Assembly: GCF_988243305.1 (NCBI RefSeq)
Contig: NZ_OZ547136.1
Length of the DNA stretch: 64,000 nt
Reading direction: 5' to 3' (one strand)
Both the position numbers and the translations under genes were made by a program. The notes under the pieces are model-generated. The model made no database searches. It was given only the letters and a program-made list of their open reading frames with translations, and had not been told where the DNA came from. Each line of letters starts with the position of its first letter. The stretch's first letter is position 1. Positions 11,137 through 13,815 of this stretch are shown in pieces.

Positions 11137-12266
11137 TATGCGCCCTCCCCAAGACCAGCAGCGATAGCGTCGCCAATGGCTTTCAGCGCCTGTTCAGCAT
11201 CTGCACCCTGGGCGGTAAAGCGTAGGCGATGACCTTTCTTAACGCCAAGTGCCACAACTTTCATCAGACTACGTCCGTTTGCCGGTTTGCCGGTGCCATC
11301 AAGGTTTGTCACGGTAATATCACTGTTAAATTGTTTAATGGTATTGACCAGCATGGTACCTGGACGAGCATGCAGGCCGTGTTCATTGCGCACCACAAAC
11401 TCCGCGCTTAACACGTCGTCGGTCGGCGCATCATCGCTGGTCAGCAGCGCCAGCAACGTTGCCGCATCCGCTTTCAGCAAGCGGTCAGCTTTATTGTCGA
11501 GTAACAAATCAGCGAGACGCTTAAGAACCGCAATGGGCTGATCGTCATTCATCGCCACACTCACCAGCATGGCTGCCGTTTCGCCGTCCACATCAAAAGC
11601 ATTTGCCGCACGGCTTACCGCAATCGCGCTACGCAGATTGCCTTCGGCGCTATCGCTCAGCCAGATACCCTGTCCGAGGTTCAGCGGTTGTTCATTGATA
11701 GCTTTGGTGACGAAAGTGGCGTCAACTGCCCCCGCCTCTTTCAGACGAGCAGCGTTCAGCGCCTGAAGAGTCAGCAGATCGCTGGCGACGATATCCAGCG
11801 TCAGCATTTCGTTGTCGAGCTTCAGCTGCTCACTCTGCTTTTCGCCCATCAGCAATGCGCGAAGTTCTTCTGCTGTTGTTGCTGACTTCAGTTGTTCAGC
11901 AACGGAATCATCGCTCAGTACGTGGGTCAGCTGGCGTAGCAGGCCCAGATGTTCATCCGAGCTGGCAGCAATACCGATCGCCACGTACGCTACCTGGCCG
12001 TCACCCCAGGTGACGCCTTCCGGGAACTGAAATACCTGAACGCCGGTTTTCAGCACCTGATCGCGGGTGTCGGTAGTGCCGTGTGGAATAGCAATACCAT
12101 TGCCGAGGAACGTAGAGGTTTGCTGTTCGCGCGCCAGCATGCCATTGACGTAGCCTTCAGCTACATTACCGGCCTGCACCAGCGCCGCAGCGACATGGCG
12201 AATCGCCTCTTCTTTGTCTCCGGCCTTTTCGCCCGGATGGATGTCCTGTACGGATAACTGGAACAT
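11136..12266 (-). CDS. fruB: PTS fructose-specific EIIA / FPr fusion protein
   Basis: 376-aa ORF matching FruB. Confidence 0.95.
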
Positions 12267-12280
12267 AGTTCTCCTCTCTT

Positions 12281-12301
12281 GCTGAATTGAAACGATTCAG
12301 C
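12281..12301 (-). promoter_or_regulatory. Cra (FruR) operator in fruB leader
   Basis: Minus-strand GCTGAATCGTTTCAATTCAGC, a palindromic Cra-type site 15 nt upstream of the fruB ATG. Confidence 0.7.
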
Positions 12302-12352
12302 TTCTATGAGAAAAAAAGCGCCAACCTGGCTTAGGGTTAAAGACAAGATCGC

Positions 12353-12368
12353 GCTGAAACGTTTCAAG
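12353..12368 (-). promoter_or_regulatory. Cra (FruR) operator, second site
   Basis: GCTGAAACGTTTCAAG containing the perfect palindrome TGAAACGTTTCA. Confidence 0.7.
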
Positions 12369-12633
12369 AAAGCATAATACTTCTGTTTCAGCACGCAAGG
12401 AAAGCCGTAAAGTTATGAGCAAAAGTTTGATGTGCTGCACAATTTTTTGTCATTTTTCCTAATTGCTGATGGGAAAATCCGTTATCAGCAATTTCATTTC
12501 AGCAGCGTCAGCAGCCAATCAGCAACAGTGAAATGGCATTTTGATTATTCGTGGCGCTTTTGATTTCGCTGTCTGTTTATTTTCTGACAAGCAGCGTAAA
12601 CTCCGCGTCTTCCTCTTCCAGTGATCGACCAGC

Positions 12634-13815
12634 ATGCATAACTCCCCCGCAGTCTCCAGCGCGAAATCGTTTGACCTGACCTCGACGGCGTTTTTAATCG
12701 TTGCTTTTCTCACCGGTATTGCGGGCGCTCTGCAAACCCCGACACTCAGTATTTTTCTTACTGATGAAGTACATGCCCGCCCGGCGATGGTGGGATTCTT
12801 CTTTACCGGCAGCGCTGTCATTGGGATTCTGGTAAGTCAGTTTCTCGCCGGGCGCTCTGATAAGCGCGGCGATCGCAAATCGCTGATTGTCTTTTGCTGC
12901 CTGTTAGGCGTGCTGGCCTGCACTCTTTTTGCCTGGAATCGCAACTACTTTGTTTTGCTATTCGTTGGCGTCTTTCTTAGCAGCTTTGGCTCGACTGCTA
13001 ACCCGCAAATGTTTGCCCTCGCCCGTGAACATGCTGACAAAACCGGACGTGAAGCGGTGATGTTCAGCTCTTTTTTACGCGCTCAGGTTTCACTGGCATG
13101 GGTCATTGGCCCGCCGCTGGCTTATGCCTTAGCGATGGGTTTCAGCTTTACGGTAATGTATCTGAGCGCAGCGGTAGCGTTTATTGTTTGCGGCGTGATG
13201 GTGTGGCTGTTTTTACCGTCGATGCAAAAAGAACTTCCACTGGCGACCGGCACGGTTGAAGCGCCGCGCCGTAACCGTCGCGATACGCTGCTGCTGTTTG
13301 TCATTTGTACATTGATGTGGGGCTCGAACAGCCTGTACATCATCAACATGCCGCTATTTATTATCAACGAACTGCATCTTCCCGAGAAACTGGCCGGTGT
13401 GATGATGGGGACCGCCGCCGGGCTGGAAATCCCGACCATGTTGATTGCCGGATATTTCGCCAAACGTCTGGGTAAGCGTTTCTTAATGCGCGTTGCTGCC
13501 GTGGGTGGCGTCTGTTTTTACGCAGGAATGCTGATGGCGCATTCACCTGTCATTCTGTTGGGCTTGCAGCTGCTAAATGCTATTTTTATTGGCATTCTGG
13601 GTGGCATCGGGATGCTCTATTTTCAGGATTTGATGCCCGGTCAGGCAGGTTCAGCCACCACGCTCTATACCAACACTTCGCGCGTGGGCTGGATCATCGC
13701 AGGATCAGTGGCGGGCATCGTCGCCGAGATCTGGAATTATCACGCTGTGTTCTGGTTTGCGATGGTGATGATTATCGCCACTCTGTTTTGCTTACTACGG
13801 ATTAAAGATGTTTAA
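12634..13815 (+). CDS. setB: Sugar efflux transporter (MFS, SET family)
   Basis: 393-aa polytopic membrane ORF matching SetB. Confidence 0.9.

Follow-up and report, generated by a model that had tools for sequence, protein, structure and literature searches.

Paired Cra (FruR) operators and an intrinsic terminator in the leader of the Escherichia coli fruBKA operon

Introduction

LacI is a stable tetramer that loops DNA, and in the lac operon (LacI O1/O2/O3) it acts from an operator at the transcription start together with a second one downstream in the transcribed region. The fructose operon of Escherichia coli, fruBKA, is alike in that its repressor, Cra (FruR), belongs to the LacI family and also has one operator at the start and another further down. 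The E. coli K-12 sites (Ramseier et al. 1993, as cited in PMC4050194, PMC7897506 and PMC11157272) have been given as O1, TGAAACGTTTCA, and O2, TGAATCGTTTCA, and described as "cooperatively bound", with an EMSA on a 290-bp E. coli fru region yielding two complexes (PMC4050194). By BLI and AFM, Cra bound to both the proximal and the distal operator, listed in Table 1 of PMC11157272 as fruBproximal (TTCTTGAAACGTTTCAGC) and fruBdistal (GAGGCTGAATCGTTTCAA). Unlike LacI, Cra was seen by AFM as dimers that occupy the two sites separately (PMC11157272), although PMC7897506 calls the E. coli protein (EcFruR) a tetramer. The centres of the two sites lie at +7.5 and +73.5 from the fru transcription start, as PMC7897506 quotes from Ramseier 1993. 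A Cra motif, gcTGAAtCGaTTCAgc, is also available from ChIP-exo and RegPrecise (PMC5888115).

Two further systems are close enough to be compared. In Vibrio cholerae (PMC7897506, PMC8088597) the fruB sites O1-O3 are bound by a regulator of the same family, carry the same motif TGAAWCGWTTCA and are likewise multiple, but there are three of them, one lying between -35 and -10, and the 5′ UTR is about 240 nt long; moreover FruR with fructose-1-phosphate (F1P) activates there rather than only repressing, and fruR is adjacent and divergent. In Pseudomonas putida (PMC4050194, PMC5141268) Cra represses fruBKA from a site downstream of the start with F1P as effector, as in E. coli, but from a single operator centred at +19.5, and cra is again adjacent and divergent. 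Here we describe the fruB-setB intergenic region of an E. coli contig, in which both Cra operators, the RNA leader that holds them and their conservation among the Enterobacteriaceae were analysed.

Methods

The window referred to throughout is the whole stretch of 64,000 nucleotides (64 kb) that was analysed, and positions are those of its plus strand. For the comparison set we took one genome per species, which gave 80 Enterobacteriaceae fruB loci, or 81 sequences with the window. Coordinates of K-12 MG1655 were transferred via the fruB ATG (MG1655 2263495 = window 12266); on this scale O1 corresponds to MG1655 2263582-2263597 and O2 to 2263515-2263530. Sequence identity, non-randomness and conservation come from the present analysis, while binding, cooperativity, effector and positions are taken from the cited papers.

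The locus

By the ORF table and NCBIfam scans, the region is the E. coli spacer between fruB and setB; fruBKA is encoded on the minus strand and faces the divergent setB:

12266 to 11136, minus strand: FruB ORF, ATG at 12266 (NCBIfam 684.7 bits against a cutoff of 302)
11136 to 10198, minus strand: FruK ORF (ORF table and NCBIfam scans)
10181 to 8490, minus strand: FruA ORF (ORF table and NCBIfam scans)
12634 to 13815, divergent from fruBKA: SetB ORF (ORF table and NCBIfam scans)

On searching complete E. coli genomes by megablast, the region was found in 5,417 of 5,426, annotated as fruB and setB. The 88-bp stretch that contains both boxes is single-copy in 5,411 of the 5,426, and 3,193 of these 5,411 differ from the window in at least one base of it. 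Between the window and K-12 MG1655 there are 3 differences in 391 aligned bases.

The two Cra operators

The boxes lie as follows:

12353 to 12368, minus strand: Cra/FruR operator O1 ("fruB-proximal"), GCTGAAACGTTTCAAG on the plus strand and CTTGAAACGTTTCAGC in the fruB sense
12286 to 12301, minus strand: Cra/FruR operator O2 ("fruB-distal"), GCTGAATCGTTTCAAT in the fruB sense

O1 has a perfect 12-bp palindromic core at 12355-12366. In O2 the 14-mer consensus match is GCTGAATCGTTTCA (12288-12301, minus strand), and the box lies inside the 5′ UTR, 21-36 nt upstream of the fruB ATG. A preliminary description of this DNA, made from its letters, had reported two strings with a TGAA-CG-TTCA palindrome within about 100 nt of the fruB start; the sequence at 12281-12301 and 12353-12368 bears this out, the far edge of O1 being 102 nt from the ATG. 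The strings it had listed are the 16-mer of O1 and a 21-mer, GCTGAATCGTTTCAATTCAGC, which is the reverse complement of the plus strand at 12281-12301 (GCTGAATTGAAACGATTCAGC).

Such boxes are rare in the window. With up to one mismatch allowed, the 12-mer TGAAWCGWTTCA matches only O1 and O2 in the 64 kb, and the 14-mer GCTGAAWCGWTTCA has two exact matches, again O1 and O2, against none in 100 dinucleotide-preserving shuffles. Relaxing the Cra pattern to three mismatches brings it down to background (18 found, 19.8 expected). Therefore only the two exact sites stand out from background, and the pair is non-random. On comparison with the Cra-operator consensus (GCTGAAWCGWTTCA, an imperfect palindrome of TGAAWC and GWTTCA flanked by GC on one side or both) both boxes showed 0 mismatches, and the same was true for the Cra-specific motif gcTGAAtCGaTTCAgc.

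The cores are also letter-for-letter those of the published operators (PMC4050194, PMC11157272), and the FruR operator used in PMC6263354, GCTGAAACGTTTCAAG, is identical to the 16-mer. The assignment to Cra made in the preliminary description, and its proposal that published Cra sites be used as the check, thus hold at the level of the cores, the footprint positions being those relayed by the citing paper PMC7897506. As far as those papers relay the original data, locus, boxes and order are the same as in K-12 fruBKA and the spacing is essentially the same: centre to centre we measured 67 bp in the window, a small discrepancy from the 66 bp that the published centres imply. The cores of O1 and O2 are identical to those of K-12 MG1655. 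A SNP against MG1655 lies at 12303, two bases outside the O2 14-mer, where the window has T on the plus strand (GAAGCTGAAT, with GAAG, in the fruB sense) and both K-12 and the published fruBdistal oligo have GAGG.

It may be considered whether these boxes are operators of another LacI/GalR-family regulator with a similar CG-centred palindrome, since a central CG with AT-rich arms is common to many operators of that family. This we hold to be extremely unlikely, as there are 0 mismatches to the Cra-specific motif and purified Cra binds the very same oligos (PMC11157272, PMC4050194). The two palindromes are almost certainly O1 and O2, the Cra (FruR) repressor sites of E. coli fruBKA. They are already known and constitute an ordinary finding, so that the preliminary description was right to present them as a confirmation of known regulation and not as a new result, the same locus and boxes having been published before.

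Conservation of the operators in Enterobacteriaceae

Both operators are present at fixed positions in all 80 other Enterobacteriaceae fruB loci, with the core starting at -98 to -103 (O1) and at -31 to -37 (O2) relative to the ATG and with an O1-O2 spacing of 66-68 bp. Across the loci O1 reads nnTGAAACGTTTCAGC save in six, where it is CGAAACGTTTCA. Escherichia, Citrobacter and Salmonella have GC-TGAATCGTTTCA as O2 and the remaining loci GC-TGAAACGATTCA, the differing positions being only the two degenerate W. The GC flank is always on the inner side of O1 and of O2, and variation within the boxes is confined to the degenerate W positions and the outer flank. When the 81 sequences are aligned over 230 nt upstream of fruB, O1 has a mean majority-base identity of 0.99 and O2 one of 0.95, compared to 0.68 in the spacer and 0.72 in the promoter stretch, and the top-scoring 14-nt windows are those over O1 and O2, O1 being the highest. 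At the level of sequence, this conservation is an independent phylogenetic footprint of the two operators.

These data also bear on the suggestion that both boxes are functionless and match a short AT-rich palindrome only by chance. At three mismatches the consensus is indeed no commoner than in shuffles, as seen above. But two exact 14-mers lie within 67 bp of one another, the boxes are invariant across all 80 related loci, with identity falling to about 0.68 in the intervening DNA, and Cra binding has been published (PMC11157272, PMC4050194, PMC7897506). Conservation and binding have already refuted this explanation, and its probability is practically nil. The conservation of the O1 GC flank and of the left half of O2 may be partly due to leader RNA helices, which are taken up below.

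The 21-mer of the preliminary description, given there as an operator, is longer than O2. Its 14-16-mer part (12286/12288-12301) is canonical O2, but its last 7 nt lie outside the consensus:

12281 to 12287, minus strand: "extra arm" ATTCAGC, an inverted copy of O2 GCTGAAT, forming a perfect 7-N7-7 inverted repeat

The extra arm is conserved at 0.95, the same as O2. Among genera its distance to the 14-mer ranges between -1 and +4 nt, and in five Citrobacter loci it reads TTCGGC, whereby a G-U pair is kept and the TTCA half-site is lost. This variable distance and the Citrobacter TTCGGC suit an arm of an RNA hairpin better than a rigid DNA half-site, and the extra arm probably forms the 3′ side of a hairpin, H3, in the leader RNA.

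Promoter region and CRP-like box

With the O1 core centred at 12360.5 and the published centre at +7.5, as quoted by PMC7897506, the transcription start would fall near 12367 and the 5′ UTR would be about 101 nt long. The preliminary description had placed both sites in the leader. This is acceptable by the quoted centres of +7.5 and +73.5, except that O1 overlaps the start point itself. The promoter elements and the upstream box are:

12374 to 12379, minus strand: TATTAT, putative -10 hexamer, its position derived from the O1 centre as quoted
12426 to 12441, no strand: CRP-like box TTTGATGTGCTGCACA (TGTGCAGCACATCAAA in the fruB sense), common to the divergent fruB and setB promoters

It is the +7.5 centre of O1 that points both to the start near 12367 and to TATTAT (12379-12374) as the likely -10 hexamer. 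TATTAT is conserved only within Escherichia; in other genera AAGACT or CAGACT is found some 4 nt further downstream. The promoter geometry and the start site may differ between genera. A consensus promoter scan of 12200-12700 gave no strong sigma-70 promoter, and a weak promoter would agree with PMC3105977, which reports CRP dependence: a single CRP site in the fruBKA-setB spacer is described there, and both promoters are less active in a crp mutant. The CRP-like box has 2 mismatches to TGTGA-N6-TCACA, with TGTG and TC invariant in the 81 sequences, and as a candidate it fits this single site. Its centre, at about -66.5 with the start at 12367, does not agree with the distance of about 60 nt given in PMC8088597. 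Likewise invariant in the 81 sequences is a CTTGC block (12399-12395).

An isolated Cra-like half-site, GCTGAAAC, lies at 12392-12385 on the minus strand between the putative -35 and -10; the activating O1 of V. cholerae occupies the corresponding position. We considered it as a third Cra operator and rejected it, as it is a half-site only, departs from the looser consensus at 3 positions and shows poor conservation beyond Escherichia, Citrobacter, Salmonella and a few others. It probably does not serve as an operator. In the half of the intergenic region next to setB there is a perfect 10-bp inverted repeat, AATTGCTGAT-N13-ATCAGCAATT (12461-12493), with (T)CAGCA repeats nearby at 12497-12525; at the position aligned with the inverted repeat other genera have GCTGAAG...CTTCAGCA. 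We know of no regulator for this repeat.

A terminator between the operators

The spacer between O1 and O2 contains the following elements:

12318 to 12354, minus strand: hairpin H1, the terminator stem, GCGCGAUC...GGUUGGCGC, starting at the G of the O1 GC flank
12310 to 12317, minus strand: U7 tract (12317-12311) and C at 12310, the mapped RNA 3′ end, about +58 if the start is at 12367

In E. coli H1 has a dG of -13.2 kcal/mol and is followed by U7. Over the 81 sequences its dG ranges from -10.7 to -22.7, and it starts at the same base (the G of the O1 flank) in 79. By MFE fold, 78 of the 81 loci have a GC-rich hairpin directly before the U-tract, and at least 5 U occur in the 8 nt after the stem in 71 of 81; there are only 4 U in 7 of 81, where O2 is kept. 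The end of the H1 stem is exactly 16 nt from the first base of O2 in 75 of the 81 sequences. Almost no indels are seen between the U-tract and O2, though the H1 loop varies. This fixed distance suggests a functional coupling of terminator and O2, for example a roadblock.

In a 62-sequence leader alignment the two arms of H1 change together (GCGTCATC/GATGACGC, GCGCTATC/TAGCGC, GCGTTATC/GGTAACGC and, in Kluyvera, CGTCGTC/ACGACG) and are followed by a conserved T-run. RNAalifold on the leader alignment returns three helices, H1, H2 and H3. For H1, five pairs have compensatory changes and 91% of cells are paired. Taking the three-helix structure as a whole, 95.5% of cells pair, compared to 38-65% when the partners are slid, and double-sided changes occur in 49 cells against 9.8 in shuffles, with 0 of 500 shuffles reaching the observed value.

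The hairpin was compared with published RNA 3′ ends. In supplementary files 1 and 3 of the Term-seq study by Adams et al. 2021 (PMC7815308), an RNA end is given for MG1655 2263539(-), which is 44 nt before fruB. This 3′ end is present on all three condition sheets, with 218,310 reads in LB at OD 0.4 and 431,335 on the second sheet, and has a Rho score of 0.26 ("No") and an intrinsic-terminator score of 9.61; no regulatory element is annotated for it there. This position is window 12310, the C right after U7, and the flanking sequence printed in the supplement agrees. A stable GC-rich hairpin, a U-tract and an in vivo Rho-independent 3′ end at the end of that tract (published Term-seq) are thus all found here, and the fruB 5′ UTR holds a working intrinsic terminator between O1 and O2.

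A simple terminator scan of 12200-12700 gave no match; the scanner missed H1 because its long interrupted stem exceeds the loop limit. An Rfam scan of the intergenic region matched no family, giving only chance-level eukaryotic hits (E above 4). No description of a fruB leader, attenuator or sRNA in E. coli was found in the searchable literature, which covers few subscription journals, and curated databases may hold a prediction. The nearest described elements are the 5′-UTR terminators and attenuators of E. coli Term-seq (PMC7815308), which share the GC-rich hairpin and U-tract in a 5′ UTR and the abundant Rho-independent 3′ end. In contrast to the attenuators catalogued there, the fruB terminator is flanked on both sides by operators of one repressor and has no evident antiterminator fold.

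Predicted Shine-Dalgarno pairing and the RNA leader

The other two helices involve O2 and the translation start region:

12270 to 12278, minus strand: Shine-Dalgarno region GAGAGGAGA, able to pair with the U-tract and CUC (12316-12308) as H2

H2 would form between UUCUC of the U-run end and GAGAG of the Shine-Dalgarno region, as an anti-SD helix around the O2 hairpin. In RNAalifold it covers columns 64-68 with 105-109 and is 98% paired, column pair 67:106 being U-A in 50 sequences and A-U in 6 (UCAC with GUGG). H3 is the inner hairpin (12295-12301 with 12281-12287), in which GCUGA of the O2 left half pairs with UCAGC of the extra arm; its columns (75-79 with 92 and 97-100) are 100% paired and show no double changes. 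The segment from the U-tract to the SD (12316-12267) folds with a dG of -13.0 kcal/mol (z -2.4). On this modelled fold, the U-tract may mask the SD in read-through RNA. No antiterminator fold involving the 5′ segment was seen in the MFE or consensus leader structures, and no conserved leader ORF is evident in the fruB leader. Neither mutually exclusive folds nor a defined input changing read-through, either of which would mark a regulated attenuator or riboswitch, was found for the fruB leader.

To this extent the boxes also belong to RNA, and it may be questioned if they are conserved mainly as parts of a structured fruB leader, with the operator role secondary. The covarying H1 begins with pairs made by the GC flank of O1, and GCUGA of O2 with UCAGC forms H3, nested in the anti-SD helix. 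Also, the RNAs of O1 and O2 are complementary at 11 of 12 positions and are paired in the E. coli MFE fold. We did not retain this O1:O2 pairing, as it has one persistent mismatch in every clade, is not recovered by RNAalifold, and the whole-leader z of -1.47 is not significant. Further, the 12-bp cores are invariant well beyond the needs of pairing, H3 shows no double compensatory change, and direct protein-DNA binding is documented. We therefore regard a mainly RNA-based conservation as very unlikely; the RNA roles look additional to the function of the boxes as operators, not alternative to it.

Regulation by the two operators

For the operators, the textbook mechanism has the best support, with Cra binding and the effect of fructose-1-phosphate taken from PMC11157272, PMC4050194 and PMC7897506. 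In the absence of fructose-1-phosphate a Cra dimer would sit on each GCTGAAWCGWTTCA box and fruBKA would be repressed. By the published centres O1 spans the transcription start, right after the putative -10, where the bound repressor would compete with RNA polymerase, while O2, about 67 bp further down in the 5′ UTR, would provide cooperative or auxiliary repression or a block to elongation; this division of repression between O1 and O2 is our inference. The 67-bp spacing would not be an obvious in-phase looping distance. Fructose taken up via the FruBA phosphotransferase system would give fructose-1-phosphate, which would lower the affinity of Cra for DNA and lead to derepression, and CRP bound upstream would activate fruBKA.

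For O2, an extension of this mechanism may be put forward in place of a looping or cooperative auxiliary operator, namely that Cra on O2 stalls the polymerase over the U-tract and so enforces termination. When a bound protein halts a polymerase, the active site comes to rest some 12-15 nt upstream of that protein. Counted from O2, this would fall in the U-tract, and it is for this reason that Cra at O2 could enforce termination. The stem ends 16 nt upstream of O2 in the 75 of 81 loci mentioned above, the mapped 3′ end at 12310 precedes the O2 14-mer by 9 nt, and LB and glucose medium, both conditions without fructose, yield the short RNA in abundance. Yet cooperativity between Cra at O1 and Cra at O2 could account for the fixed spacing just as well, the intrinsic terminator is strong by itself (score 9.61), and O2 is kept in the 7 of 81 loci with only 4 U in the 8 nt after the stem. 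On balance we consider the roadblock possible but rather doubtful. With the same reserve we propose, tentatively and as the less probable case, that fruBKA has a second, hitherto undescribed control layer, consisting of premature termination and SD masking, in which O2 would be chiefly a Cra roadblock on the U-tract and the RNA of about 58 nt might possibly act in trans.

Implications

The sequence, spacing and position of O1 and O2 are fixed across about 80 Enterobacteriaceae species. O2 is now more sharply defined, with 12286/12288 as the end of its canonical box and the further 7 nt excluded from the operator. The O1-O2 spacer is not filler, as it holds a covarying terminator, which corresponds to one of the stronger uncharacterised 5′-UTR 3′ ends in the Term-seq data of E. 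coli. Should this terminator cooperate with O2, it would explain why a second operator lies 67 bp inside the transcript, and it would bear on Cra/PfruB-based flux biosensors, which now reuse the operators without the leader.
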